This document shows positions 2,161 through 30,108 of a stretch of 32,000 nt of DNA, one piece after another; positions within the stretch are counted from its first letter, which is position 1, and each line of letters begins with the position of its first letter. The stretch spans positions 6,563 to 38,562 of the forward strand of contig JAUWKS010000030.1 of NCBI GenBank assembly GCA_030614005.1, in the 5' to 3' direction. A program made the translations under genes and the position numbers. The notes below the pieces were generated by a model, which made no database searches, had not been told where the DNA came from, and saw nothing but the letters and a program-made list of their open reading frames with translations. This stretch comes from Candidatus Heimdallarchaeota archaeon. GTDB taxonomy: Archaea; Asgardarchaeota; Heimdallarchaeia; JABLTI01.

Positions 2161-2265
2161 TAATATTCGAAAAGCACTTAAAAAAAGTTCTACAAAAAAT
2201 TAGTGATTTTTTGGTATAAAAGAAAATTATTTATGCGGTTATTTCTTGGCAACTCTGCTCTTAAA

Positions 2266-2325
2266 ATGGTGATGAAATCCACCTTGACCTCTGTCTGAAC
2301 CGCATATGGCTGATGACTTCTACTT
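2266..2325 (+). ncRNA. Fluoride (crcB) riboswitch
   Basis: GGTGATGAAATCCACC...AACCGC-ATATG-GCTGATGACTTCTAC follows the fluoride riboswitch consensus (P1 GGTG/CACC, pseudoknot GAAAT/ACTTC, AACCGC, GCTGATGAC..CTAC) and lies directly upstream of crcB. Confidence 0.85.
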
Positions 2326-2351
2326 TTAGAACTAAGGTGGAACAAACAAGA

Positions 2352-3026: not shown

Positions 3027-5048
3027 ATGGATTTATTATTGTATCAAATAAGAAGAAATTGTATCTTGTTATTATCAGTTTTATGTCTAATCCTTCAATT
3101 CCAGCTTACTGTTGTCGGAATTAATTCACAACTACCTGCAGTTGAGATTCAATGGACGTATCAGACAAATAACCCAATTTTTTCATCTCCAGTAGTGGCT
3201 GATTTGACTAATGATGGAAAGTTGGAAATACTGTTTAGTTCAATGGGAAATACATTTACTCTTGATTCAAATGGAAAATTGATTTGGAATAACACAGACA
3301 TAAAGTTTGCCTATTCAGCAGGTGCCATTGCGAACCCTGCAATAGTAGATATAGACGGAAGTAATACTTTAGAAATAGTTGTTGATTCGTATAGTTATGG
3401 GGTTTATTGTATAAATCGCTTCGGAGAGGTAATGTGGTTTTATGAAGAGGATGCTATAGTAACCTCACCGGTGATAGCTGATTTAGATAATAATGGGGAT
3501 ATGGAGATCATTTTTGCCACACAACAGAGAATACTCTGCTTGAATTCTTCCGGACTTGTGAAATGGAACTATACCGTTGAAGTAGCATATTCATTTGGCA
3601 CTCAATTTGCCTTGGCTGACCTTGATGATTCAGGCGATGTTGAAATATTAATCAATACTCAAAGTAGTGAGCTTTTATGTTTGAATACAGATGGTACAAA
3701 AGCTTGGTCTTCAAATTATTCAGGTATGCCAATAACAGCGGATTTAGATGGAGATAACTCAAAAGAGATAATCCTTTCTTCATACGACCAAGTAACATGT
3801 CTAAACAGTACTGGTGGATTTCTATGGGAATACATAGGAGGAAGTGGTTTCACTGTTATTAGCGTTGCAAACATCATTGAAGATGAAAAACTTGAAGTGA
3901 TAGTTTGCAGTGGGGCCGGAAAAAGTGTGATATGCTTAAATTCTCTGGGACAATGGGAGTGGACGTATTTTGCTGATGAAACACCAACTTCACTTTGCAT
4001 TGCAGACCTTACTGGGGATGGAAACTTGGAAATAATCATTGGCACAGAGTATGGTGGCCTATTTTGTTTGAGTGCAAATAAAGCATTGCTCTGGGAAATC
4101 AGCGTCTCGGATGAGTTCTGGGCAGTAACATATCCTTGTATTATAGATTTAAATGGTGATGGAATACATGAAATCGTTTTTGCTCATTTTAAAACAGTGT
4201 ATTGTCTAAAGGTTACTGGTATAAGTAAATCAGGTGTAGCACCGTGGTATTGTAAAGGAGGAACGGTATTTAGAACTGGCACATTGGATTCTGATGGTGA
4301 TTACATAGATGACCTCTCAGAAGAGACTTGGCTCCAAACAGATAGGCTTGTAGCTGATTCGGATTTCGATTATCTCACAGATGGAGAGGAGTTCCTCTAT
4401 TACCATACTGATCCAACAAATCCTGACACAGACGGAGATGGTTTTCTCGATGGGGAAGAAATTGCATCGGGAACCGACCCTTTAAACCCAGATGATAATC
4501 CTGCAATAAGACGAAGATTACTAATCAAAAAAGTCTTGATTATTGTTATTCCAATAATGGCCATTTTGTCTTTTCTATTGATAGTTTCTAAAATTTCTTA
4601 TGTGCTCAAACATCCGAAGAGTATTTTGAGTAGAACCATTGCTCAATTGAAGAATTCAGATAATGAATTCGTTCCTCTTAAAGAGCTCATTAACAAAACA
4701 AACCTCACTCGAGATAAAATATTGAAGCAATTAAAGAAAAATAGTTTCTGTGAAAACAATAATATTATCTTTTTTTCAAATTGTCTCTATTTTAAGGAAA
4801 AAATTGATCTTAAAGCGATGATTACAAATTTGGAGAAAGCTAGTGTAGAAATTCAAGGAAAGGAAATAATAAATAACGATACAATACTTTTGCTTTCTGA
4901 AGGAAAAGAGCAATTAGAAAAAGTTAAGTTCTTTGCTGAAGAACTGAAAAATCAAGAAATCATCAATAAGTGTCATAAAATATCCCATGACTTGACAGAT
5001 GTCATGAATAAAATAGATTTTGACATTTTAGCAAGAGTAAATGGATGA
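3027..5048 (+). CDS. Single-pass membrane protein: signal peptide, 8 FG-GAP/PQQ-like propeller repeats, TSP3-like Ca-binding repeats, TM helix, cytoplasmic helical domain
   Basis: Eight repeats of the type SPVxADLxxDGxxEIxx; DSDGD/DPTNPDTDGDGFLDGEE repeats; hydrophobic VLIIVIPIMAILSFLLIV preceded by RRRLLIKK. Confidence 0.88.
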   Translation: MDLLLYQIRRNCILLLSVLCLILQFQLTVVGINSQLPAVEIQWTYQTNNPIFSSPVVADLTNDGKLEILFSSMGNTFTLDSNGKLIWNNTDIKFAYSAGAIANPAIVDIDGSNTLEIVVDSYSYGVYCINRFGEVMWFYEEDAIVTSPVIADLDNNGDMEIIFATQQRILCLNSSGLVKWNYTVEVAYSFGTQFALADLDDSGDVEILINTQSSELLCLNTDGTKAWSSNYSGMPITADLDGDNSKEIILSSYDQVTCLNSTGGFLWEYIGGSGFTVISVANIIEDEKLEVIVCSGAGKSVICLNSLGQWEWTYFADETPTSLCIADLTGDGNLEIIIGTEYGGLFCLSANKALLWEISVSDEFWAVTYPCIIDLNGDGIHEIVFAHFKTVYCLKVTGISKSGVAPWYCKGGTVFRTGTLDSDGDYIDDLSEETWLQTDRLVADSDFDYLTDGEEFLYYHTDPTNPDTDGDGFLDGEEIASGTDPLNPDDNPAIRRRLLIKKVLIIVIPIMAILSFLLIVSKISYVLKHPKSILSRTIAQLKNSDNEFVPLKELINKTNLTRDKILKQLKKNSFCENNNIIFFSNCLYFKEKIDLKAMITNLEKASVEIQGKEIINNDTILLLSEGKEQLEKVKFFAEELKNQEIINKCHKISHDLTDVMNKIDFDILARVNG

Positions 5049-5094
5049 GTCTTTTAACGAACAATGCGAAGAGAGCAATTGGAGTTATTTTTTT

Positions 5095-5210
5095 AAAAAG
5101 GAAGAGAGAAAGGAAGGAATCGAGGAGAAAAAGAGTTAGCAACACAAGGGAGAAGAAAGGAGAAGAGAAAGGGATACTGATGAGAAGAGGAAAAGAGAAA
5201 AGGAAGAAAA
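5095..5210. repeat. Polypurine/polypyrimidine low-complexity tract
   Basis: 105 of 116 nt are A/G on +, by manual count; forms the 3' trailer of the tRNA on the - strand. Confidence 0.8.
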
Positions 5211-5215
5211 TGGCA

Positions 5216-5299
5216 TACCGGGGACGGGATTTGAACCCGCGAGTGCGGAGGCACAATGGATTAGCAATCCATCTCCCTACCAGGCTAGGAAACCCCGGT
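5216..5299 (-). tRNA. tRNA-Ser(GCT), CCA not encoded at the canonical position
   Basis: Cloverleaf: acceptor ACCGGGG/CCCCGGT, D-arm TCCT..GGGA, anticodon arm ATGGA-TTGCTAA-TCCAT, long variable arm GTGC-CTCC-GCAC, T-arm GCGGG-TTCAAAT-CCCGT. Confidence 0.95.
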
Positions 5300-5424
5300 G
5301 AAAAGTCAGAGATTATTTTTGTTTTTTCGATAATTTGTTCATAAAGATTATGGTTAAATTGTGATTAATGTTTTTATAAGTTTTTTGAAATCAATTTAAT
5401 AGTTATAGTAGACTATTTTTCTAT

Positions 5425-6257: not shown

Positions 6258-7373
6258 TTATTTTTTTATTGATGCTTGAGCAATTTTTTGGAAACCCATT
6301 GCATTAGCCATTACTGGATCTTCTGGAACGATAACCTCGTCTGGTGTGTGTACGATATTATGTTCTGTAAGAATGGTTTTCATGTTTTTACCAAAAACTT
6401 CAGCGCCACCACCAGTTAGAATTACTTTTTCTATCCATGCATCGGGTGGTAAAGTGCCCAGAAGAGTTGAAACCTCATCTACAATGATATCAGCGATTGT
6501 ATTTACATAATAATCAGTTGTTTCAGAGATATCGTATTGTTCTCCTGCTATCATAACGTTTTTGCGACCAATTTCTATTGCTTTTATCAATTCGAATGGT
6601 CGTAGAATTTTTCCTGTTTGCTTATTGAGATTGTCGGCTATTCTCCCTGCAAGAGTTGTTATCGATTCGTGGACACTTCCACTGGCTGTTCTCATTAATC
6701 TTCCTTCATACACTGTAAGAATATTTGTTGCGCCTGCACCTATATCAATAACTATAGCATCCACAGCTCTATCTTCCCCTGATGTCTTCAAGATTTCATA
6801 ATAAGAACCATAACAGACTGGCATAACTAAACATTGGTCAATCTTTAGTTTGATTTGTTTTTCTTCACCAGAAGCATCATTAGCGACATTAATTGTCATG
6901 GCGCCTTTCATACCAGAGCTAAGTGTTGTCATTTCTTCTTGAGAACTTGCGACAGGTACACCGGTTGCAATCACAAAGTTAGCATAATCTTTTTCCACAA
7001 AATTCGATAAAGCCGCTTGCATTGCTATTATTGCATCCTTCAAGCTTTTCATTTTTCCATCTGCAGCCAGCGGTCGCTTGATTTCACTTTGAAGTCTAGC
7101 TAGTTCACCGACAAAGAATTTCTTTCCTGCATCTGTTGTTAGAACAAGATTATTTATCCACGATTTGTCAGTTCCTAATCCTTTCCATCCTGGGTTTGGA
7201 TCGCCTACAAGGCTAGGAATTTTTATTTCCTTTTTTCCATCGGGACCAACCAGTTTTATTAAACTAGTTCCTAGATCAATGCCAATTGCCATCGGATTGC
7301 CTGTATCTTTAGCTTTCGATTTAGATTTATCTTTTGATTTAGCTTTAGCTTTTTGTTTAGATTTTTTAGACAA
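6258..7373 (-). CDS. ParM/StbA-family (Alp-like) actin-fold ATPase with Lys-rich N-terminal tail
   Basis: Phosphate-1 IGIDLGTSLIK, connect ATGVP, phosphate-2 VIDIGAGATN, adenosine LTGGGA. Start reassigned to TTG 7373 (GGGTG SD 6 nt upstream); the longer ORF to 7562 overlaps the upstream gene. Confidence 0.88.
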   Translation of the reverse strand: MSKKSKQKAKAKSKDKSKSKAKDTGNPMAIGIDLGTSLIKLVGPDGKKEIKIPSLVGDPNPGWKGLGTDKSWINNLVLTTDAGKKFFVGELARLQSEIKRPLAADGKMKSLKDAIIAMQAALSNFVEKDYANFVIATGVPVASSQEEMTTLSSGMKGAMTINVANDASGEEKQIKLKIDQCLVMPVCYGSYYEILKTSGEDRAVDAIVIDIGAGATNILTVYEGRLMRTASGSVHESITTLAGRIADNLNKQTGKILRPFELIKAIEIGRKNVMIAGEQYDISETTDYYVNTIADIIVDEVSTLLGTLPPDAWIEKVILTGGGAEVFGKNMKTILTEHNIVHTPDEVIVPEDPVMANAMGFQKIAQASIKK

Positions 7374-7428
7374 AATTTTCACCCTAGTTTTTAGAAGGAA
7401 TAATTTCCTTATATAGGTATAAAAAAAG

Positions 7429-7447
7429 CATTTTAAATACTTTCTAG
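7429..7447 (-). promoter_or_regulatory. Candidate BRE/TATA promoter for the actin-like gene
   Basis: CTAGAAAGTATTTAAAATG: purine-rich BRE-like segment followed by a TATA-like box, ~60 nt upstream of the TTG. Confidence 0.45.
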
Positions 7448-7464
7448 TCTGGACATGAGAGAGT

Positions 7465-8808
7465 TTATTCCAGTTGCGGACTAGCTCCCGCATGTATATC
7501 AGCATCTGTTTTGTTCTCTTCTTGTGTATCTTCCTTGATTGTGTGGATAACTTTACCCGCATTAGCTCTTTCGCCTATTTTTTTAGCTGCTCTTCTTTGT
7601 ATTGCTTGAACAATTAATCCCATCACCATAAAGAAAATAGCTAATGGAATTAAAACTAGCATTATCATTTCAGGTTGCCCTGCTTCGACGCTGTTTATTA
7701 TTGAATCTGGAAGATTAAGAACTCTCAGTACTGGTACGGGATTTAATGCTAAATAAGACATAAAAAGCAAAGTAACCATTCTGAACAGTGTTCCAGATAG
7801 TACTATCAAGAATAATCTCATTAATGAAGGTGTATAAGCAGATGCCGAGAGAGAGACCGAGATGAATGGATCATTTTCCTCTAATCTCAAATAATAATTC
7901 TTCAGTCGATTGTTCATTTTATCCCAATCTTCTAATGGTGAAATCCTAAAGAGTTTCTGACCAACTAAAGCTCTTATTTGTGAGAATGCAGTAGTTACTT
8001 TCAATAATGATGTTGATGTTTTCTTTCCTTTAACCATTATTGATTCTTCTTCTTCTATTTGCTTCTTCTCTCCAATTGGCATCTTAAAATCCTTAAGTCG
8101 TTTAATGTTGCTTGATATTCTACGATGTCTTTGAACATTTGGTCCAATAACGTTATAGATATAGCTAGCCTGGAAGCTTAACTCAAGTGAGAAATAAATA
8201 AGAAATGCAGTAATAACCATTTTTGAGAAAATCATTTGGAAAAAGTTTCCACTTGAAAAGTCAAGATTTAGTAATAATTTTCCATTCATAGCTGCAATGC
8301 CTAATACTATATTCATCGAGAAAAAGGATATTGCTGATAGTGCTGGATTGCATTCCTTCAAAAATCCCACTCCAGACACAAATGCAATAATGATTGCTAT
8401 CATAATAGTAAATGCAAATGCTGCATCTATGAGGCTTTGTTGTTGCGGAAGCTGTAATGGTTGAGTAACCAATTCTTCGATTGGAATACCTAATACAGTT
8501 TCATTTCCGCCGAAAATTGCAACATGAATTGCACTCATAATTGCTACTGCCCCTGTATCACCATACCCTAGAATTAGGGCAATTCCATACCCTACAAGCA
8601 GGAACAATAGTTCGAATAGAAAGATAAACATCTTCAACCCATACCAAAATGATTGGAATCGCCAAATGGTAGGATCAACTGAAGTCATTACCAAAACAAA
8701 AGCAGCCACTGACACTAGCCCTGCAAATATTCTTGCTGAACCTAACAATGTTCTCATTTTTCGTACTCGTTCATTTTCTACTCGTAAGCTTATAGATTGT
8801 TCAGACAA
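7465..8808 (-). CDS. Uncharacterised multi-pass membrane protein (~7-8 TM, long basic loop)
   Basis: Multiple hydrophobic segments. AGGAGGGG SD lies inside the DUF58 3' end, and TTG 8808 overlaps the DUF58 stop (ORF track start 8835). Confidence 0.8.
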   Translation of the reverse strand: MSEQSISLRVENERVRKMRTLLGSARIFAGLVSVAAFVLVMTSVDPTIWRFQSFWYGLKMFIFLFELLFLLVGYGIALILGYGDTGAVAIMSAIHVAIFGGNETVLGIPIEELVTQPLQLPQQQSLIDAAFAFTIMIAIIIAFVSGVGFLKECNPALSAISFFSMNIVLGIAAMNGKLLLNLDFSSGNFFQMIFSKMVITAFLIYFSLELSFQASYIYNVIGPNVQRHRRISSNIKRLKDFKMPIGEKKQIEEEESIMVKGKKTSTSLLKVTTAFSQIRALVGQKLFRISPLEDWDKMNNRLKNYYLRLEENDPFISVSLSASAYTPSLMRLFLIVLSGTLFRMVTLLFMSYLALNPVPVLRVLNLPDSIINSVEAGQPEMIMLVLIPLAIFFMVMGLIVQAIQRRAAKKIGERANAGKVIHTIKEDTQEENKTDADIHAGASPQLE

Positions 8809-10204
8809 GTCCAATGCCCCTCCTTTTTGCGTCAATATATTCGTTGATAACTGTAACTAAGAAATCATCTGGGCCCACAGAGATCACCCCAGCACGATAT
8901 CTTTGTATATCTTTCCCAAGCCTTCTACGTATTTCATAATACTCTTCAGCGATAGCTTCTCCTAATGCTCTTTCAGTAGGTCCGAGTCGAGTATTTTGTA
9001 TTTCGAAGAATGGACCAAAAGGTGAAATAACTATTACATCGAAACCCACTGCAGATGCTTTTCGAATTCCACTAAGAATATCTTTTACGCTACCTTCAAG
9101 GTCAGAAATAATAATTAGCAATCCTCTACTTCTTGTTCTCATAATCAAATTTTGTACAGCATTTGTGAGATTTGAAGGACCTCTTGGTGTGACATATGCA
9201 AGGTCTTCTAAAATTCTATTTAAATGTGATGAACCTTGTTTAGGAGCTATAAACGTATTTACTTTACTATCATAGGTTGCAATTCCTATCAAATCTTTTC
9301 TTTCAGAAGCCATATGTGCTAATAATACTACGGCTCGAATGCTAAACTCTAGTTTCGTGTTTCGAATTAAGCCTTGTTCCATACTTTGTGATGTATCTAG
9401 TAAAACCATTACTCGAACATTTTTTTCTGTTTCAAATTCCCTAATTTGTAATTTATTTGTTCTACTGAAAGCTTTCCAATCAATATGTCTGAAAGCATCT
9501 TCTGGATAATAATCTCGAATGCCCCAGAAATCCATTCCTGTTCCTTTTAATTTTGTTTTATGGATACCAAAGATTTTCCCTAATTGCCTCTTTGCACCTA
9601 ATGTTTTCAATTTAGCAATATCTTCATATGATGGATAGACTAAGACTTCATCATAATCTTGTTTGACTACCGCTTCTTCATAAAAACCAAGGCGGTCATG
9701 TATAATCACTTTTGTTGGACCTATTTTATATAGTCCTCGAACTGGAGTTCTCACAATATATGAAAAGTCTACTTTTGCGCCGGCATTCAATCTAGTATAA
9801 AGGTAATTTTCTCCAAGAACCAAATCCATTGCCTCGGGGTATGCGTCATATATTTCTAAATGATCTATGGCATTTGGTGCACCATTTTTTACCGTTATTT
9901 TTACGTGAATGTAGTCTCCTGCAAAGCATTTTCGTTTTTCGAGTACTCTATGTACTTGTATTCCTTCGGTGTTTGCTTGGATTCTGAAAATCGGATATCC
10001 AAATGTTGTGCCGATAACCATTAAAATTCCAATTAATAGAAAATAGGTGACAATGACATCTGGAATAGGATAGATTACTTGTTGTAATGTGAAATAGGCT
10101 ATGATATCAAATATAGGACTTATGCCTTCAAAGGCTAGTCCTACTGAAATCATAAACATACCTCCGAAAAGGATAAACGATCCTCGTTTGGAAATCATTT
10201 TCAA
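8801..10204 (-). CDS. DUF58 (vWA-like) MoxR-associated protein with N-terminal TM helices
   Basis: GMDFWGIRDYYPEDAFRHIDWKAFSR, LQIREFETE, VMVLLDTSQSM, LLIIISDL. Confidence 0.93.
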   Translation of the reverse strand: MKMISKRGSFILFGGMFMISVGLAFEGISPIFDIIAYFTLQQVIYPIPDVIVTYFLLIGILMVIGTTFGYPIFRIQANTEGIQVHRVLEKRKCFAGDYIHVKITVKNGAPNAIDHLEIYDAYPEAMDLVLGENYLYTRLNAGAKVDFSYIVRTPVRGLYKIGPTKVIIHDRLGFYEEAVVKQDYDEVLVYPSYEDIAKLKTLGAKRQLGKIFGIHKTKLKGTGMDFWGIRDYYPEDAFRHIDWKAFSRTNKLQIREFETEKNVRVMVLLDTSQSMEQGLIRNTKLEFSIRAVVLLAHMASERKDLIGIATYDSKVNTFIAPKQGSSHLNRILEDLAYVTPRGPSNLTNAVQNLIMRTRSRGLLIIISDLEGSVKDILSGIRKASAVGFDVIVISPFGPFFEIQNTRLGPTERALGEAIAEEYYEIRRRLGKDIQRYRAGVISVGPDDFLVTVINEYIDAKRRGIGLV

Positions 10205-10255
10205 CAGTCCTAAGTATCTATTCTTGAAGCTACTCTTTGTTTTTCGTAGATTGAA

Positions 10256-11290
10256 TTATCTCGTTTCTCTTATTGGAATATCTCTGATAATGTCTTTCAC
10301 AATTGTTTGTGAAGTTATGCCTTCCAAATCTGCTTCAGGTTTTAAGATAAGTCGATGGTAAACAGACCCTACTACTATTCTTTTGATGTCATCTGGTACA
10401 ACGAAATCACGACCGCATATTGCAGCATAAGCTTTCGAAGCGCTCAGCATAGCGATACTTGCTCGAGGACTTCCTCCAAGAATCAATCTCGGATCTGTTC
10501 GTGTTCTCATTGTAACATCACGAATATATTCGATTATTCCTTGATCTACAAAAACACCATCTCTGACTGTCTTCTGTAATCTAACTATTGTTTCAGCAGT
10601 AGTTATCTCTTGTATTTGGCTCTCAACAGGTCGATGTTTTAATTGAATGATTTTTTCTTCTTCAGCTGCATTTGGTAATCCAACTACTGATTTCATCAAA
10701 AATCTATCAAGTTGAGCCTCCGGTAAAGGATACGTTCCTTCTTGTTCGATAGGATTCTGTGTAGCAATAACAATGAAAGGCGAGGAAAGAACATAGGTGT
10801 TTCCTTCTATCGATACTTGTCTTTCAGCCATTGCTTCAAGAAGAGCGCTCTGTGTTTTTGGTGGAGCTCTGTTTATTTCATCAGCTAAGAGGATATTTGT
10901 GAAAATTGGTCCTCTTCTTAATTTAAAAGTACCAGACCTTTGGTCAAAGATATTTGTTCCTAAAACATCAGAAGGAAGTAAATCAGGGGTAAATTGTACT
11001 CTCTTGTACTTGCACCCTAATGTTTTTGCAAACAGTTTTGCTAAAGTAGTTTTAGCAATTCCAGGTACTCCTTCAAGCAAAATGTGTCCATCACATAATA
11101 AACTGATCATTAAGTTTTGAACAACATTTTTCATGCCAATAATGTGTTTCGAAAGTTCGTCTTGAATACTCTTAGATATTCTTTCTACATCGGATATATC
11201 CACTAACCCTCCTGCGGGTCCAGAAACAATTTTTTCTGTAGGGGGAGGGGGTGGTGGTGCAAACTCAGACATTTTTTTTACATACCCCAT
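10256..11290 (-). CDS. moxR: MoxR-family AAA+ ATPase (MoxR proper)
   Basis: Walker A GVPGIAKT, RVQFTPDLLPSD, Walker B LLADEINRAPPKTQSALLEAM, ATQNPIEQEGTYPLPEAQLDRF, GSPRA, DFVVPDDIK. Likely start is ATG 11272. Confidence 0.97.
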   Translation of the reverse strand: MGYVKKMSEFAPPPPPPTEKIVSGPAGGLVDISDVERISKSIQDELSKHIIGMKNVVQNLMISLLCDGHILLEGVPGIAKTTLAKLFAKTLGCKYKRVQFTPDLLPSDVLGTNIFDQRSGTFKLRRGPIFTNILLADEINRAPPKTQSALLEAMAERQVSIEGNTYVLSSPFIVIATQNPIEQEGTYPLPEAQLDRFLMKSVVGLPNAAEEEKIIQLKHRPVESQIQEITTAETIVRLQKTVRDGVFVDQGIIEYIRDVTMRTRTDPRLILGGSPRASIAMLSASKAYAAICGRDFVVPDDIKRIVVGSVYHRLILKPEADLEGITSQTIVKDIIRDIPIRETR

Positions 11291-11307
11291 TGTTTTTTTT
11301 TATTTTT

Positions 11308-12807
11308 TTAATATCGTGATCTAGGTTTAGTTATTATTTCTTCAATATTCTTCATCTCTAATACTAGAGCAAGGAAATCTTCCTCTGTAATCTTCTTTTT
11401 CTTTTCAGTAAATAGTTCTATACTTTTGAGGCTCTTCAAAAGAAGATTATAATTGAATTTCCCAGGATATTGTTCTTCAAGCAAATCCACAATCTGAGTG
11501 AAATTAATATCCAATCCGGAATTAAATTTCTTATCAAGTCTTCTTTTCAAACGTTTATACAGAACATTCAACGCTTTATCATATTGCTCATAATTAACAT
11601 ACCAGGACATTTTTGCTGCAAAGAATGATCGAGATCTTTTTTGTTTAATTTTTGTCATTAATAATGGAGACGCACCTCGACTTTTTGGATAGTTACGTCT
11701 AAGAAAAATTAAAGCTATAATTGGGAAAAATGGTGCTAATAATGGAAACATTGTAAATGAATTGATATAGCGTAAATACATGCTCACATAGCTAAAGGGA
11801 TCCAAAACACTCAAAGCTGCTCGGCCTTTGGAAGGTGAAAGATGCCCTTCATCATAAAAAATAGTTCTTGAACCATTAATATCCAACCAATTAAATAGAT
11901 TACTTGCATATTGAGCATTGTCATATTGTGACATACTCATTAGCTCGTTGATGAAAATACTGGGATCGGCACAAATCAAGATGTTACCCAATCCTACTGC
12001 ACCCAAAGGCAAAGGAACCATAAGAGAGAATGATACTCCTCTCCACTCGTCTTCATCTGGTTGGAACTCACCATTTCTCGCTTTTTCAATATCCTTTTCT
12101 AACCAACTTACTGGAGTGCTATAAGCAATTCCAGAAGGAATTGGTTGCCCGGCAATTGAAAAGGAAGGAATCCATCGAGTCGTACCCCTCTCTGCATCAT
12201 AAGCTAAAAAGCTTACTGCTGATGGATAACTTGTAACTACTTGAGTAACACCAGCGATAGAAGGCAATCCAGGCGCACTAATGAAATTCTTAATTACGGG
12301 CATAGCAGGTGTTTGATGATATGACTCATAGTCCATTAGCAATGATTTGTTTATTTTCACTCCTTGAAGTGGAACACCGCCAATACCTAGTCCTGAAAGG
12401 TCAATATTCTCGAGAAACGGTGCAATTATTACATTAATAAGGCCAAGAATGTCATTCGCACTTCCAAAATCATCTGCTATTAATACACTTCCACCTCTCA
12501 TTATGAAATAAGCTAAAGCTGCTGTTTCTGTTGGGTCGAAAAATATTGTTGGACCCACAAGAGCTAATACACCCAAATTATCTATTCGTGTCAGTGTATT
12601 CAATGTCGAAACAATAGGTTGGAATTCATATCCTTCGCTTTCTAAATTTTCTTTCAGAATACTTGTACCATCCCAGTTAGTATTATAAATCGAAAACTGG
12701 CGAGTTTCTTCTATTCCTAATCTCGTAACTGATAAAACGATTGGCAAACAAAATATGATAAACAATATTGATAACATGAATGCATTTCTATCAAATTTTC
12801 TAGCCAT
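11308..12807 (-). CDS. DUF4350 (GATase/GIFT-like) membrane-anchored protein
   Basis: N-terminal TM, FSIYNTNWDGTS, RGGSVLIADDFGSAN, ADPSIFINELM, DNAQYASNL, IFYDEGH, C-terminal TM; typical position in MoxR operons. Confidence 0.85.
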   Translation of the reverse strand: MARKFDRNAFMLSILFIIFCLPIVLSVTRLGIEETRQFSIYNTNWDGTSILKENLESEGYEFQPIVSTLNTLTRIDNLGVLALVGPTIFFDPTETAALAYFIMRGGSVLIADDFGSANDILGLINVIIAPFLENIDLSGLGIGGVPLQGVKINKSLLMDYESYHQTPAMPVIKNFISAPGLPSIAGVTQVVTSYPSAVSFLAYDAERGTTRWIPSFSIAGQPIPSGIAYSTPVSWLEKDIEKARNGEFQPDEDEWRGVSFSLMVPLPLGAVGLGNILICADPSIFINELMSMSQYDNAQYASNLFNWLDINGSRTIFYDEGHLSPSKGRAALSVLDPFSYVSMYLRYINSFTMFPLLAPFFPIIALIFLRRNYPKSRGASPLLMTKIKQKRSRSFFAAKMSWYVNYEQYDKALNVLYKRLKRRLDKKFNSGLDINFTQIVDLLEEQYPGKFNYNLLLKSLKSIELFTEKKKKITEEDFLALVLEMKNIEEIITKPRSRY

Positions 12808-12845
12808 AGTCTTTTACCTCAGTATACTTTTTCTTGGTTATTGAT

Positions 12846-15326
12846 TTATCTTTGTTCTTGTGGTGCTGGGCCTTTCTCTATTGCAAGCTGAATGTTATGT
12901 AAAGCTTGTCTTGCTTGTGTGTAAGAGTTCTTTGTAATCTTATGATCACTAAATCGAGCTTCTTCAAATCGCATAACAAGCATAGTAACGTCTCTCACAG
13001 GGACTCTGTTAGTTGAAGCAATTATACGTGCAAGCTCTCTGGGAGAAAGTGAAGGTGCATTTATTATACCGAAATTCGACATACAAATTGACTCAAATGC
13101 ACGATAACAAAGAGTTGAAGCTCGTTTGAAATCTTTCGCATTTTCAGATTCATCAATTAGCTTCAATATTGTATTTAGGTCGTATTGATCGACCCCTACA
13201 GCCATTCCAGGTCGTTTCTTTGACTTTCTGAATCGACCGAATGCATAAACAGATGATACTATTATTATTCCAGATACCATAGCTATTAATATTCCAATCA
13301 ATATAGGTCCCAAATTAGTGCCTCCAGGCAGTGATGACGTACTCACACTTGTATCAGTATTAGTAGGTGTAGGATGTACTTGAAAGTTAACTCTAAAACT
13401 AAAGTCGATATTTTCCTTAAAGGTTATCGTTACAGTATAATCAGTATTTGTTAATAAAGTTTCATCCCCAAAGAATAAATAACTAAAATCACCTATGCTT
13501 GATAGAGTTATAGTAGTGATTCCAAGGGATTCAAATGTTATGTTGACAGTTCTATCCGTAATCGGTCTATCAAATTGATCCGTTAAAGTTGCTTGGAGAG
13601 TAAAAGTGGAATTATTATATAGCGGATTGCCACCAATCGAACTATAACCTGCATCTTCAATAACATTTGAAGAATTAATTGTAGCAGCAAAATTGACTGT
13701 TGTGAAAATATCAAGAGTGTAACTTGTATTAGAAGAATCAAAGTAAGTGGTTGCCAATGCTTCTATATTTATTGCCCACTGGCTAACTATAGCTGTAAAT
13801 GAAAGTGGAACTGCCATTAAAATAGTAAATGTACCAGTTGCAGAAGTATTACTATTATATACTGGTCCAGTGACGTCCCATTGAGCTGTTATAGACATCC
13901 CCTCAATTACTCTATTATCATAATTATCTCGCATTGTACCAGTTACTTCAATAGACTCACCAGGCATGACCATAAAAGCTTCTGTAAAAACATCAGTATT
14001 ATTTACTTCTGAATTTAGTACTGTTGAATTTCCAACAACGGTAAGAATTTTGTATTCAGTTACCGCACTTATTCCCTGCCCTGTAGCAACATCCACCCAA
14101 ATAGTATTGTCACCTACTGGAAGATAAGTTCCAGAAACGACGAAAGTCGAATTAAATAGACCAGTACCCCCAGCAGCTATTGTAGTGGCTTGTAATGTTG
14201 TTGCTGTTTGTGTGGTACCTTGATCCACATAAATCTCAAGATCAACATCTGAGACATAGGGATTTCCAAACGAATCTTCTATTAAGCCAGATATTGTAAC
14301 ACTTGTTTCATTGCGGAGAATTACTGGATCCGCTCCAGGACCAGATGTTGCCGGATCGTCGATTGAAAAAGTAATTCCAGCACCAGAAAAGACAGTTATA
14401 TTCACAGTTTCATTTGCCCAATCTGCAGCAGGAGTACCAATTAAAGCCTCATTTCTAATATCACCTACAACGTAGGAAAGTCCTAGAAGACTAACATTAA
14501 ATGACCCTTCTAAAGCATGTTGAGTTAATGGGGTCGCAAGGGGAACGTTAAATGTTGTATTTGTTATTAAACTTACAATTGTATCAGTATATGTAGATCC
14601 TAACCATTCAAAACTAATATCTTCTCCATTAGACTCAGGAACAACAGGCAAAGGATCGCTGTCATAGTATAGCAACCCAGCAATTGCAAAGAAATCCTCT
14701 TGCTCACGTACAAGTGTTGTATTTGTAGACATACCCATGTAGATACTTGCATAACAGTCCACACTTTCTGAGATAGCTTGTCGATTATCTTCGATAGGAC
14801 CTAAGAATGGGTCACCAGGAAAGACAGTATAAACAGTTACTACACCAAAATCTTTTGAGTAATCTATATCACGACAAGTAACTGAAAAATCACCATTGCT
14901 ATCTGTTCGATCTTCACCGATTAGATAGTCATTCTTTAAACCTTCTTGATCTGCTTCATAAGCAGCCCAAGAAAAAGTTGACCAGAAAATCTCAATTGGT
15001 TCATCTGACCACCCTACACCAGTTCCTGGGTCTTCTAAACGACCAGTTACTATAAATGAATTTCCTCTAATAATAACTGTAGGAATTATAGTTTTTGGTG
15101 AAAAATAATTATCTTGGGGTAAGCTTTTTTCTTCAAGTCGAGGATTTATTATCTCTGCATTGAGTGACGTTTCAATCAAGGATGGTTTGTTTATGACAAC
15201 CTGTGAATCGTCTTTAGAATTACCTATATAATTAGCAACTGAATAAGATACGCTCACAATTACAATAAAGATAATTGTAACTACTTTCAAGCTAGCTTTA
15301 TTCCGACTCAAGTTGAACATCACCAA
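12846..15326 (-). CDS. Large surface protein: N-terminal anchor, T/S/V-rich Ig-like beta region, TM helix, C-terminal DUF4129
   Basis: TM LGPILIGILIAMVSGIIIVSSVYAF; DUF4129-like CYRAFE...SLSPRELA...FEEARFSDH; many N-x-S/T sequons. Confidence 0.85.
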   Translation of the reverse strand: MVMFNLSRNKASLKVVTIIFIVIVSVSYSVANYIGNSKDDSQVVINKPSLIETSLNAEIINPRLEEKSLPQDNYFSPKTIIPTVIIRGNSFIVTGRLEDPGTGVGWSDEPIEIFWSTFSWAAYEADQEGLKNDYLIGEDRTDSNGDFSVTCRDIDYSKDFGVVTVYTVFPGDPFLGPIEDNRQAISESVDCYASIYMGMSTNTTLVREQEDFFAIAGLLYYDSDPLPVVPESNGEDISFEWLGSTYTDTIVSLITNTTFNVPLATPLTQHALEGSFNVSLLGLSYVVGDIRNEALIGTPAADWANETVNITVFSGAGITFSIDDPATSGPGADPVILRNETSVTISGLIEDSFGNPYVSDVDLEIYVDQGTTQTATTLQATTIAAGGTGLFNSTFVVSGTYLPVGDNTIWVDVATGQGISAVTEYKILTVVGNSTVLNSEVNNTDVFTEAFMVMPGESIEVTGTMRDNYDNRVIEGMSITAQWDVTGPVYNSNTSATGTFTILMAVPLSFTAIVSQWAINIEALATTYFDSSNTSYTLDIFTTVNFAATINSSNVIEDAGYSSIGGNPLYNNSTFTLQATLTDQFDRPITDRTVNITFESLGITTITLSSIGDFSYLFFGDETLLTNTDYTVTITFKENIDFSFRVNFQVHPTPTNTDTSVSTSSLPGGTNLGPILIGILIAMVSGIIIVSSVYAFGRFRKSKKRPGMAVGVDQYDLNTILKLIDESENAKDFKRASTLCYRAFESICMSNFGIINAPSLSPRELARIIASTNRVPVRDVTMLVMRFEEARFSDHKITKNSYTQARQALHNIQLAIEKGPAPQEQR

Positions 15327-15864
15327 ATAGTTATAGTTAATTTATACACCAGACTATTTTAATTATATCTGAATGAACAATCATACTATTTATTAGTTGT
15401 CAATTACGCATTGATTGTTAATTGCAAAGTTAGTATAAATAGATAGACCAGATAGGTGATCGAGATAAACATCGTAGAAATTTCCGAAGCTTAAACTCGA
15501 CCATCCAATTACACAATAAACATACGGTTTGGCATTCTAGGACTCATCTATTATTGTCTATTGTGTTCCGGTATTTTCAACGTTCTATTACTTTAAGCAC
15601 TATTCTCTTCTCTCGGGCAATCAAGAAGATTTCTCGTTTACTTTGGTGGCTCTATAAACACTCTACCCGCTACATTGAGTATTTATCCATAGTAAATTTG
15701 GAGTGTGCTCTTTGCTAGAACGAGAAGCATGAATTGATAAATTACCATGTTCTCTTCTTAAGAATAACGTTGACAACTCTTCTATTAAAAACTTTACTAG
15801 CGCGCATATCTTTGCGTCTTTTGCAAAGGGATTGTAAGTAAGAAAAAAGGGTATATACACCAAA

Positions 15865-15920
15865 TTGTAATAGAATTACAAACATTTATATACTATTTTC
15901 TGTAATAGTAATACAGAAAA
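15865..15920 (+). promoter_or_regulatory. Two palindromic operator boxes flanking a TATA box
   Basis: TGTAATAGAATTACA (15866-15880) and TGTAATAGTAATACA (15901-15915), both TGTA-N7-TACA; TTTATATA at 15885-15892. Confidence 0.7.
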
Positions 15921-15951
15921 GTGTAAAACTTTTCCTCTGAAGTGAATTAAA

Positions 15952-16041
15952 ATGATTGACAAAAAGAAGAGAATTAAAGAACAAGTCCGAAAAGACATCA
16001 ATAAAATACGAATGAAAATGGCTCTTACAACAGGAGCCTAA
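15952..16041 (+). CDS. Candidate 29-aa basic small protein / leader ORF
   Basis: MIDKKKRIKEQVRKDINKIRMKMALTTGA; SD-like GAAGTGA upstream; first ATG after the TATA box. Confidence 0.5.
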   Translation: MIDKKKRIKEQVRKDINKIRMKMALTTGA

Positions 16042-16064
16042 TATTAATTTTTAAGGTGAAAATA

Positions 16065-17135
16065 ATGTCAAAAGAAAATAGAAAGAAAGAATTAGAAAAA
16101 GAAATCGAAAAACTACAGAGAAAGCTCGGTAGTTTAGATGATGGAAAACAATATGACAACGATGACGAGTTTGATGAAGAAAGAAAGGCTCGTCGTAGAA
16201 AAAGACGCTTGCCCTTACCTCCTATGCCTACACCAGTAGTTATTCCAATTGTAAACAGAAAAGGTAGAAGAGTTGTAAAAGTTAGTGATATCAGTGCTAA
16301 AGAAAAAGAACAATTGCGCAAAGAAGCAGAACAAATAAGACAAGAAAAGCTTCGTTTGAGAGAAGAAACAAAAAGAATGAAAGATTCTCTGAATGCAAAG
16401 AAACGTGAATTTACTGATTTTCGCAGAGAATTAAGAGAACGAGAAAATGAAATTAGAGAAAGAGAACGAGATTTACGAAATAAGCGTGATCATAGCCATA
16501 GCTATTCTTGGGACTCAGATATCGATGAAGATATGGAGACCTTAACTGATGATCTTGAGCTCCAGCTTGGAGATTATACACGTTCAATTCTAGCATCAGT
16601 TGCTCAAAGCTTGAAATCATCAATGGGTGTAGTTGTGAAAGGAGCTGGTGATGTTGGAGTTGAAATGAAGAATGTTGGAGTCGAGCTTGATAAAATTGGC
16701 AAAGAAATTGGTGAAAAGATCTCCAGAGATGTTTATGTGAGTGTTGGAGGAAACATTCCTGAAGATAAGCTTGAAGAATTTTATGAAATTGGGGCAACAA
16801 TCGTAGCTGCGATTGGTGACTCAAATCGTTTGAGAATTCTCAAGGAATTAGAACGCGGGCCAAAGTACCAAAAGGAGCTTAGCGATATTACAAGCCTCCG
16901 TGGTGGCACCTTCAAGCATCACATGGATCGTCTTCTAGATAGAGAAGTAAAATTTGTTACTCAAGAAGTTGTTCGAGGAAGATACTTGATAACTACTCGA
17001 GGTCGAGAAGCTTTGAAACTTGCAGAAATGCAATTTAGGCGTTACCTTCAAGTGAAAGAGCGCGATGATATGTCAGGTTCCCTTAATAAAGACAAACTTG
17101 ACCCCGACGAAGAATTCGATGTGGATATTAAATAA
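16065..17135 (+). CDS. ArsR-type winged-helix regulator with long N-terminal coiled coil
   Basis: C-terminal AIGDSNRLRILKELERGPKYQKELS...TFKHHMDRL...RYLITTRGR; E/K/R-rich helical N-terminal half; AAGGTGA SD before ATG 16065. Confidence 0.85.
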   Translation: MSKENRKKELEKEIEKLQRKLGSLDDGKQYDNDDEFDEERKARRRKRRLPLPPMPTPVVIPIVNRKGRRVVKVSDISAKEKEQLRKEAEQIRQEKLRLREETKRMKDSLNAKKREFTDFRRELRERENEIRERERDLRNKRDHSHSYSWDSDIDEDMETLTDDLELQLGDYTRSILASVAQSLKSSMGVVVKGAGDVGVEMKNVGVELDKIGKEIGEKISRDVYVSVGGNIPEDKLEEFYEIGATIVAAIGDSNRLRILKELERGPKYQKELSDITSLRGGTFKHHMDRLLDREVKFVTQEVVRGRYLITTRGREALKLAEMQFRRYLQVKERDDMSGSLNKDKLDPDEEFDVDIK

Positions 17136-17153
17136 TCTGGAGTGTGCAATGTA

Positions 17154-17870
17154 ATGAAGTTGGAGTTAGTTAACGAACCCTTACGAACAACTCAAAGAGC
17201 GATTATTGCTGATCTTGAAGACACAATGATCACTATCGGCAAGAGAGGACATATTTTTCCAGTAATTAATACACGAACGTATGAAAATATTGGCTATTAT
17301 CTCATAGGAGATATTTACCTTGGTTCTGATACTATTATTAATACTAATAAAGGCGCTATTGGAAGTTCCATTGAAAAGCTTGCTCGAGAAGCTTTCATTA
17401 AGTGTGACACAATTGATTTCTCCAATACTAAAGCAGATAACCTATCTGATAAAGATTTTAGAAAAGTTGAAATCAAAGCATATCGTCATTTTGAAAAAAT
17501 CTACAAAAGGCATTTCAATGGAAAAGGCAACCTTATAATTAACAGCAAACGGTTTGATAATTATAACAAGTTAGAGGATGTGGAATTCTACACCTATTTA
17601 TTCGATCCGGAAGAATTCATCTTGATCAAAGATAATCAAACAATTATCGCAATCTCTAGTTTAGAGAATGAGGTTATTATCTGTGATAAAAAGAAGAATT
17701 CGTATATTGAAGTATCAAAGGATACAGGTGTTCAAATTCATAATAATGATGGTCAAGTTGTCAATGTCGGTTCAACTGGCGGGATTATTATTAACGGAAA
17801 AAATCTCAAAGAAGTAATCTCTGGAGCATTAAAGCCTCTTTCCAATATGTTTGATAAAAACAATTATTAG
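17154..17870 (+). CDS. Uncharacterised beta-rich protein, co-operonic with the ArsR-type gene
   Basis: Long ORF 18 nt after the upstream stop; GGAG SD before ATG 17154 (ORF track GTG 17142). Confidence 0.8.
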   Translation: MKLELVNEPLRTTQRAIIADLEDTMITIGKRGHIFPVINTRTYENIGYYLIGDIYLGSDTIINTNKGAIGSSIEKLAREAFIKCDTIDFSNTKADNLSDKDFRKVEIKAYRHFEKIYKRHFNGKGNLIINSKRFDNYNKLEDVEFYTYLFDPEEFILIKDNQTIIAISSLENEVIICDKKKNSYIEVSKDTGVQIHNNDGQVVNVGSTGGIIINGKNLKEVISGALKPLSNMFDKNNY

Positions 17871-29085: not shown

Positions 29086-30108
29086 ATGGTTTTAAAATTG
29101 AAGATATTCTTTGACGAAACACAAAAAGAAAGGGGAAAAATAAATACTAATTATTCTATCCTTCGAGATTCTTTAAGGAATGAAGGATTTCAGATTGAAG
29201 TGTATGACGACTTTCCAATTTCAGAGAAATCGTTGAAATGTGATGTATTTGTTTTTGCTTGCCCAGATGGGTCAAAATTAGCGAAAAATGAAATTGATGC
29301 TTTAACCAATTTTGTTGAAAGAGGAGGAGGATTGCTTGTTATTAGCAATGCAGGTGGAGATCGTGGATTAAGGACAAATATGAATGAAGTTTTGAATAGA
29401 TTTGGTATTGAAGTGTTATCAGACCAAGTTAAAGATGAAACTAACAATGAATTCAATATGCCTACTCATCCAGTAATTAAAGATATAAAAAACCACCCGA
29501 TTTGCACTGGGGTATCAGAAGTAGTAGTTGTTGCGGGAAGTTCTATTAGAGGTTCTTCAAATATGAAAGGTTTAGCTTATACATCTCCCACAGCGGAACC
29601 ACCTAATGTACCAATAATTGTTGCTGGAAACTTTAAAAGTGGAAGAGTGGTTGCTGTTGGTTCATACCGATTATTTTCTAATTATGGAGCAGGATTATCT
29701 CTCCGAAATAACAAAACATTTGCTATGAATATTTTTAGATGGTTAGCAGGCGAGTCAACTGGTAAAGGTGCAGCAGTAGCAGCTTCTACTCAAACACCTC
29801 CACCACCACCTACCTCTCAACAAGTTAGTGCAATTGTTCCACCAAAACAAAAATCCACAGACGCTTCAACTAAACCATCACCTATTCCACCCACACCTAT
29901 TAGTTCAGCAACAAGAACTTCCACAAATGCAGCTACAGGACCGGTAAATAATCAAGCAGTAATTCAAGAAATAGAAGGACTGAGAGCCGAAATATCTGAG
30001 ATGCGAGATATTATTGCGCGATTATATTCTGATTCCCTTGGCTATCTTCAAGAGATGAAAGAAGAAGTAAGGTCAATGCTCGATTATATTCGTACTAAAG
30101 AAGGGTAA
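29086..30108 (+). CDS. Cytoplasmic GIFT/GldG/IFT52-like domain protein with Pro/Thr-rich linker and C-terminal coiled coil
   Basis: IFFDETQKE, FVERGGGLLVI, TNMNEVLNRFGIEV, GRVVAVGSYRLFSN, NIFRWL; no signal peptide or TM. Confidence 0.8.
   Translation: MVLKLKIFFDETQKERGKINTNYSILRDSLRNEGFQIEVYDDFPISEKSLKCDVFVFACPDGSKLAKNEIDALTNFVERGGGLLVISNAGGDRGLRTNMNEVLNRFGIEVLSDQVKDETNNEFNMPTHPVIKDIKNHPICTGVSEVVVVAGSSIRGSSNMKGLAYTSPTAEPPNVPIIVAGNFKSGRVVAVGSYRLFSNYGAGLSLRNNKTFAMNIFRWLAGESTGKGAAVAASTQTPPPPPTSQQVSAIVPPKQKSTDASTKPSPIPPTPISSATRTSTNAATGPVNNQAVIQEIEGLRAEISEMRDIIARLYSDSLGYLQEMKEEVRSMLDYIRTKEG

Follow-up and report, generated by a model that had tools for sequence, protein, structure and literature searches.

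Why should the gene of an actin-fold protein lie directly behind a membrane-protein cassette in an Asgard archaeon, and does its product work with what the cassette encodes? The question was raised by a stretch of 32,000 nucleotides (nt) from a Candidatus Heimdallarchaeota archaeon (contig JAUWKS010000030.1), referred to here as the window. In it, six co-directional open reading frames (ORFs) on the minus strand encode a DUF4129 protein, a DUF4350 protein, a MoxR ATPase, a DUF58/vWA protein, a protein with eight transmembrane (TM) helices and a ParM/Ta0583-type actin-fold protein (genes 1 to 6, in that order). The six ORFs were confirmed at the coordinates given by a first-pass annotation made from the sequence alone, as was their spacing: gaps of 38, 17 and 51 nt, an overlap between genes 4 and 5, and 91 nt before gene 6. 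Its family assignments also proved right, with Pfam matches above gathering score for five of the six genes (DUF4129, DUF4350, AAA_3/MoxR, DUF58, and ALP_N with MreB-like_C). The cassette itself has been predicted as a system before; the new element is the actin gene beside it, an order-specific paralogue with a remodelled active site.

An actin paralogue with a remodelled active site

Gene 6 (6258–7373; 371 amino acids (aa) from a TTG start, with the ORF reaching 7562) matched ALP_N (PF17989, 51.4 bits against a gathering score of 26.3) and MreB-like_C (PF21522, 55.6 against 27.8). Its AlphaFold2 model had a mean predicted local distance difference test score (pLDDT) of 88.5, with residues 1–23 below 50. 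The best Foldseek match was Ta0583 (E = 3e-20, TM-score 0.8), followed by ParM, Alp7A and CorM, and the profile matches among solved structures were pCBH ParM, Dh-cParM1, CorM and Ta0583. The protein was not a eukaryote-like actin or lokiactin, as the Pfam Actin profile (PF00022) reached 19.3 bits against a threshold of 27 and covered residues 268–363 only, and there was no PilM or FtsA Pfam match at E ≤ 0.01. A Lys-rich N-terminal tail (residues 2–24) was modelled as disordered; its length varied among close relatives, and the S-K-K with which it starts was conserved.

The actin family was scattered over Asgard lineages (38 of 200 genomes), and the genome of the window held three copies, namely gene 6, C34:33389–34417 (61% identity) and C9:11854–12864 (53% identity). 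A maximum-likelihood tree of 114 sequences placed gene 6 in a monophyletic clade of 26 (Shimodaira–Hasegawa-like approximate likelihood ratio test, SH-aLRT, 100), called the PVCYG clade, whose stem measured 0.6 substitutions per site and whose internal branches were short. The C34-type copies formed the sister clade (support 98), with a stem of 0.21. The PVCYG clade was present in all 12 species-level genomes of one Heimdall-class order (one family, two genera), and these carried all three copies except for one 64%-complete genome showing two. Gene 6 was under purifying selection, with 85–86% identity between the window genome and genome G195, compared to 45% for gene 1. The idea that it is better conserved than its paralogues was rejected, as these reached 93.6% and 86% in the same comparison. 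Gene 6 may have originated by duplication of a ParM/Ta0583-type actin gene inside this one order.

Both catalytically intact paralogues adjoined small GTPases (L088:7138–13000, G000 C9; L087:3135–10466, G000 C34). The C9 copy was accompanied by a Ras/Roc-like GTPase, a CobW GTPase, two unknown ORFs and an Arf/Ras-like GTPase. The C34 copy was accompanied by an Arf-like GTPase and then a block composed of a 520-aa unknown protein, a VWA_CoxE-like protein and a 531-aa unknown protein, which was 76–84% conserved and syntenic in G195.

What sets the PVCYG clade apart lies in the active site. All 26 members had M-P-V-C-Y-G and D-I-G-A-G-A-T-N, while all 88 other family members in the tree had P-E-P-[YF]-G and a phosphate-2 loop ending in Asp (usually D-x-G-H-G-x-T-D). 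When alignment positions were screened for residues fixed in the clade (≥95%) and fixed to a different residue elsewhere (≥85% of 86 other members), only five separated the clade: E186V, P187C, H213A, D217N and A237S. In gene 6 these are V186 (6816–6818), C187, A213 (6735–6737), N217 (6723–6725) and S237, and four of the five fall in the connect-1 and phosphate-2 motifs (PEPYG to PVCYG, DIGHGSTD to DIGAGATN). The nucleotide-binding residues were invariant, including D33 (phosphate-1), D210, G212 and G214 (phosphate-2), and G321–G323 (adenosine loop). Pairwise alignment put the Pro-Val of gene 6 on the Pro-Gln of pCBH ParM; the catalytic Glu/Gln after the connect-1 Pro and the acidic phosphate-2 end that characterize ParM/StbA-type proteins were both missing.

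In actin-fold ATPases, the connect-1 Glu or Gln and the residue at the end of phosphate-2 position the attacking water (Q137 and H161 in actin, E148 in ParM, E143 in MamK), and replacement of the Glu, as in ParM E148A and MamK E143A, yields hydrolysis-deficient proteins that form stable or static filaments. Because the water-activating residues are replaced and the nucleotide-binding loops kept, the PVCYG clade is predicted to bind ATP with slow turnover or none. The connect-1 Glu and the phosphate-2 Asp and His would have been lost on the long stem branch, with the nucleotide-binding loops retained. The clade would then be a natural counterpart of mutants of the ParM E148A/MamK E143A type, and its five defining changes, set against active paralogues in the same cell, offer a compact system for the change from an actin-like ATPase to a non-catalytic scaffold.

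The five-gene module in Asgard archaea

Gene 1 (12846–15326, 826 aa) encodes a predicted type-I membrane protein with a DUF4129 tail (29.8 bits against a cut-off of 24.8) and weak Pfam matches to CarboxypepD_reg and Big_1. DUF4129 is a module found at the C-terminus of TgpA-like proteins. Hydropathy predicted a signal anchor (residues ∼13–31), an acidic immunoglobulin (Ig)-like ectodomain of ∼640 aa, a TM helix (∼675–693) and a cytoplasmic DUF4129 tail. The gene evolves fast, with 43–47% identity within the genus compared to 82–86% for MoxR. Gene 2 (11308–12807, 499 aa) encodes a DUF4350 protein (arCOG01314, GldG/GIFT-like; 47.3 bits against 30.4) with a predicted signal anchor, ectodomain, TM helix (∼351–369) and basic 130-aa cytoplasmic tail. 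The DUF4129 and DUF4350 proteins are both predicted to be of type I, with large ectodomains and ∼130 aa in the cytoplasm. A second GIFT/DUF4350-like protein is encoded outside the cassette at 29086–30108 (plus strand; IFT52_GIFT 57.6 bits, DUF4350 39.2 bits), and a similar IFT52_GIFT protein was seen two genes downstream of the cassette in another family (f21, L090:7080–8105).

Gene 3 (10256–11290, 344 aa) is a cytoplasmic MoxR-class AAA+ ATPase with AAA_3 (222.3 bits) and AAA_lid_2 (70.7 bits) matches above gathering score, and the Walker A (GVPGIAKT) and Walker B (LLADEINR) motifs can be read from its translation. Starting 51 nt downstream of it, gene 4 (8801–10204, 467 aa) has the features of a DUF58 vWA partner of MoxR, with matches to DUF58 (109.8 bits against 23.4) and VWA_2 (44 bits), an intact D-T-S-Q-S motif (DxSxS) resembling a metal ion-dependent adhesion site, two N-terminal TM helices arranged as a hairpin, and a vWA domain predicted to be cytoplasmic.

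Gene 5 (7465–8808; longest ORF 7465–8835, 456 aa, whose numbering is used below) most likely starts at TTG 8808, which has a GGAGGGG Shine-Dalgarno site 8 nt upstream and aligns with the MSE/MSR N-termini of its orthologues. From this start it overlaps the DUF58 stop by 8 nt, as gene callers also found in the orthologues, which fits the translational coupling suggested by the first-pass annotation. Hydropathy and AlphaFold2 agreed on eight TM helices with both termini in the cytoplasm. The model was all-helical (pLDDT 81.9), with a helical cytoplasmic loop of ∼120 aa (residues ∼220–340) between TM6 and TM7. Neither Pfam nor NCBIfam gave gene 5 a family. Among 40 members of the 8-TM family, Pfam gave scattered matches with E > 0.005 and none to Transglut_core or DUF3488 at E ≤ 0.1. 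Structural searches were likewise negative: Foldseek against the PDB returned no match at E ≤ 0.001, the wide VIA-align search peaked at Z 8.8 to BAR domains and helical bundles, under the noise level stated for helical proteins, and the Atlas shape search gave TM-scores ≤ 0.31 by query, while its feature search returned unnamed Promethearchaeota clusters only.

A HMMER search against 1.8 billion cluster representatives recovered 82 relatives of gene 5, and the NCBI titles of the close ones read Heimdallarchaeota, Promethearchaeati and Asgard group. The family is poorly conserved overall (mean identity of 21%, alignment A1). Two residues were invariant, E218 at the cytoplasmic end of TM6 and L311; P118, Y225, P232, R236, R310 and R352 were nearly so, as was an S382-x-E384-x-x-x-P388-E389 motif in the outer loop between TM7 and TM8. 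This pattern of conservation suggests a binding or catalytic site, beyond a mere anchor.

The first-pass annotation had regarded the multi-pass protein as an unusual extension of the cassette, a view that did not survive comparison across the phylum. The 8-TM family had a match in 169 of 200 sampled Asgard genomes and in 81 of the 85 of high quality, with a single match per genome except in two genomes. In the 30 best loci, the gene just before the 8-TM gene was DUF58 or MoxR 29 times; among 20 wider loci, drawn from 15 families, 18 showed the order DUF4350-MoxR-DUF58-8TM, with DUF4129 detectable upstream in most. Genes 1–5 are thus an ordinary single-copy module present in nearly every Asgard archaeon, and they are packed like an operon, given gaps of 38, 17 and 51 nt followed by the 8-nt overlap. 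No actin homologue was found beside the cassette in 15 other Asgard families, nor any conserved sixth gene downstream of it; the downstream neighbours in these families included elongation factor 2 (EF-2), ribosomal protein S7, a class II tRNA synthetase, nucleoside triphosphate (NTP)-transferases, a major facilitator superfamily (MFS) transporter and CheR, among others.

The module may be an ancient envelope module in which two single-pass proteins with large ectodomains (DUF4129 and DUF4350) join an 8-TM membrane core. Assembly or remodelling of this complex would presumably be the task, at the cytoplasmic face, of the MoxR AAA+ ATPase together with the vWA (DUF58) protein, its adaptor anchored in the membrane. 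The vWA domain, MoxR and three tails or loops are all predicted to be cytoplasmic, which fits a cytoplasmic engine. The MoxR/DUF58/DUF4350 module is among the most conserved unexplained gene sets of Asgard archaea.

The actin gene beside the module

In every member of the PVCYG clade with readable context, the 8-TM gene was followed directly by the actin gene, both on one strand; these loci were the window, 11 GTDB species loci (L109–L119), L051 and L052 (GCA_019058195.1), L053 (GCA_014730365.1) and an ENA contig (P0024). The deepest branch of the clade (P0025, the actin of L053) was linked too, and the linkage held in at least 13 species-level loci with zero exceptions. A survey of the linkage between actin and cassette, proposed by the first-pass annotation, therefore gave a divided answer: the orthologues of gene 6 are always linked, while other members of the family, among them the two paralogues of the same genome, lie apart from any MoxR cassette. 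MoxR, DUF58 and 8-TM genes were all absent within ∼9.5 kb of 18 loci of distant actin family members, which included both paralogue types of the same genus. On its other side, the junction between the actin gene and endonuclease V was broken by pirin or unknown genes in several species, while the 8-TM–actin junction never was. This undisturbed junction favours selection for adjacency.

The 91-nt spacer (7374–7464) holds a block resembling a B recognition element and TATA box (BRE/TATA) at 7431–7446, which reads TAGAAAGTATTTAAAA on the minus strand and aligns in 12 of 12 species, about 55–60 nt upstream of a conserved Shine-Dalgarno site (GGGTG, 7380–7384) and TTG start (7371–7373). The TTG, the S-K-K codons that follow and the GGGTG site were conserved in the 12 species. 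The first-pass annotation had pointed to such an element at 7429–7447 as a possible promoter of the actin gene, and conservation of the block in 12 species argues the same way: the actin gene probably has its own promoter and is a separate transcription unit. A scan of the window for a second copy of the motif gave one match with one mismatch (15785–15797) against 2.8 expected by chance, which is not significant. The start codon was TTG in all 12 aligned species (the window, L053, L109–L111 and L113–L119), always after a GGGTG-type Shine-Dalgarno site, and this conserved weak start may keep translation of the actin low. The public sequencing runs matching the stretch listed no RNA run; 12 DNA runs, from marine-sediment and cold-seep metagenomes, held all or part of it.

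We tentatively favour the reading that the actin is a functional, non-hydrolysing, ATP-binding scaffold or static filament attached to the module. After the putative loss of hydrolysis, the gene would have kept its place next to the 8-TM gene, on the downstream side, in every species of the order and behind a promoter-like element of its own, and its product would form a static filament, or a cytoplasmic scaffold of the PilM/FtsA kind, docking on the cytoplasmic parts of the module. A specialised actin held beside the module in one lineage provides a handle on the function of the module and, if the two bind, would tie the module to the cytoplasmic scaffold system of the archaea most closely related to eukaryotes. 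That ATP-locked actin forms a stable filament or ring, tethered via the 8-TM protein or the DUF4129/DUF4350 tails to the MoxR/vWA module, is rather unlikely. If true, such a tether would give one Heimdall-class order a transmembrane link from large surface proteins to an internal cytoskeletal element, an independently evolved prokaryotic analogue of adhesion-to-cytoskeleton coupling. Complex prediction that paired the 8-TM protein (alignment A1) with the actin (A3) returned 0.00 in both runs, which is evidence neither way.

Several observations weigh against attachment to the module. A spacer of 67–145 nt separates the 8-TM and actin genes across the order, the actin has its own conserved promoter-like element and lacks translational coupling, and the module-bearing genomes of other families that were searched have no actin neighbour. 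Moreover, the order is shallow, with two genera in one family, and genes outside the operon are equally syntenic in it on both sides (the helix-turn-helix (HTH) protein, the 242-aa protein and endonuclease V), so that the adjacency could be due to inheritance alone. It is quite possible, then, that the actin is a neighbour by descent only: the duplicate would have landed beside the cassette in the ancestor of the order, with too little time since for the two to separate, and the role of the PVCYG actin would be unrelated to the MoxR module, for example as a partner that regulates or caps another filament or its catalytically intact sister. The sister paralogue, with PEPYG and DIGHGSTD, is indeed found in each of the 12 genomes. 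Should inherited synteny be all that lies behind the adjacency, the locus is an ordinary one. This explanation has to contend, however, with the lack of a single exception to the linkage, with the repeated breaks of the actin–endonuclease V junction over the same evolutionary span, and with an orientation that is always co-directional and a spacer that is always short.

The first-pass annotation had inferred an envelope complex linked to a chromosomal actin-like filament, possibly for cell shape, adhesion or protrusions. Gene order and co-orientation agree with a model of this kind, in which a six-gene operon would couple the complex to a filament kept dynamic by ATP, and the nearest structural relatives (Ta0583, ParM, Alp7A, CorM and MamK) share the actin fold, the ParM, CorM and MamK matches being solved filaments. 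The model is nevertheless improbable, as the water-activating Glu and Asp are replaced in every member of the clade, and static rather than dynamic filaments are expected from the behaviour of ParM E148A and MamK E143A; in addition, the actin is likely to have a separate promoter, and the module does without an actin in the 15 other families. The missing catalytic residues, here those needed for dynamic instability, also speak against a type II (ParMRC-like) DNA segregation system or what is left of an integrated plasmid. ParMs are the best matches by sequence among solved structures, and NCBI annotators call relatives 'ParM/StbA family', yet the NCBIfam ParM equivalog (PRK13917) scored 53.1 bits against a cut-off of 417, the adjoining genes encode the 8-TM protein and endonuclease V and nothing ParR-like, the actin family is vertically inherited across Asgard lineages, and the context is one of chromosomal housekeeping genes. 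We consider a segregation system highly improbable.

Around the locus lie genes for endonuclease V, PmbA/TldD, a tRNA, an FGGY kinase and a DapA-like protein, together with a fluoride riboswitch; genes of the rep, par or defence type were not found near it, in agreement with the chromosomal context proposed earlier. PADLOC gave only a marginal DolB match for MoxR (20 bits) and no match for the other five proteins, and a plasmid or defence origin of the locus was rejected on gene context and the PADLOC result. Upstream of gene 1, a non-coding gap of 730 nt (15327–16055), conserved in the order, precedes a divergent gene pair (16056–17870, plus strand) encoding a 359-aa coiled-coil protein with an ArsR-type winged helix-turn-helix (HTH_5, E = 1e-4) and a 242-aa protein. 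The pair stood beside the cassette only in the loci of the order and not in 20 loci of other families, and may comprise order-specific regulators of the module. Elsewhere in the window, the tRNA lies at 5216–5299 (minus strand, Rfam 52.8 bits) and is overlapped by a 99-aa ORF that is probably spurious (5045–5344, plus strand). The fluoride riboswitch aptamer is at 2259–2329 (plus strand, 48.5 bits against a gathering score of 34), and a 673-aa FG-GAP/beta-propeller protein with a bacterial TSP3 repeat, likely a surface protein, is encoded at 3027–5048 (plus strand).

Comparison with known systems

The module matches the arCOG01314/MoxR/vWA neighbourhood, a predicted secretion or membrane-remodelling complex (Makarova and colleagues, 2015; PMC5898192). 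Both comprise a DUF4350 ectodomain protein, a COG0714/MoxR ATPase, a vWA protein, and Ig-like surface and multi-TM proteins, which places the cassette in that neighbourhood by its components. It differs in that the vWA domain is predicted to be cytoplasmic here and secreted there, and in that no actin-fold component is listed for the neighbourhood. The multi-pass arCOGs listed there have five TM helices, and the partner here has eight.

A second relative is the MoxR-vWA(DUF58)-YebA/TgpA operon (Zhang and Aravind, 2012; PMC3495828), represented in P. aeruginosa by PA2875-PA2874-TgpA (PMC3507681), for which it has been proposed that clients brought in by the vWA domain are processed close to the membrane at the expense of ATP (PMC3495828). 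As in that operon, MoxR and DUF58 are followed by a protein with eight TM helices. The 8-TM protein here lacks a transglutaminase-like domain, however, as judged from 40 members and a loop modelled as helical. This loop is cytoplasmic and lies between TM6 and TM7, whereas the transglutaminase-like domain was assigned to a loop joining TM7 to TM8 and predicted to be cytoplasmic (PMC3495828), while that of TgpA has been shown to be periplasmic (PMC3507681). The YebA/TgpA operon also differs in having no actin.

For the actin, a functional analogy may be drawn with PilM, FtsA and the cytoplasmic domain of GspL, with which gene 6 shares no sequence-family membership. These are actin-fold proteins with little or no ATP turnover that dock on the cytoplasmic tails of bitopic proteins in envelope-spanning machines. 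Gene 6 itself belongs with Ta0583 of Thermoplasma acidophilum and the ParM/Alp proteins (PDB 2fsj, 6ixw, 5ec0), with which it shares the fold, 22–23% identity, and the ALP_N and MreB-like_C domains. It departs from them in the Val that replaces the catalytic Glu/Gln, the DIGAGATN loop, the absence of ParR, the Lys-rich tail and its fixed place beside a membrane module. The CorMR system of Anabaena, as outlined in a preprint (bioRxiv 10.1101/2025.06.27.661541; PDB 9rmi), offers a parallel in being a chromosomal ParM-type system repurposed from DNA segregation, in which the actin is recruited to the membrane by a partner. According to that outline, the filaments of CorM are dynamically unstable and an adaptor derived from ParR is retained, whereas in the PVCYG clade hydrolysis has probably been lost and the candidate partner is the MoxR/vWA membrane module.

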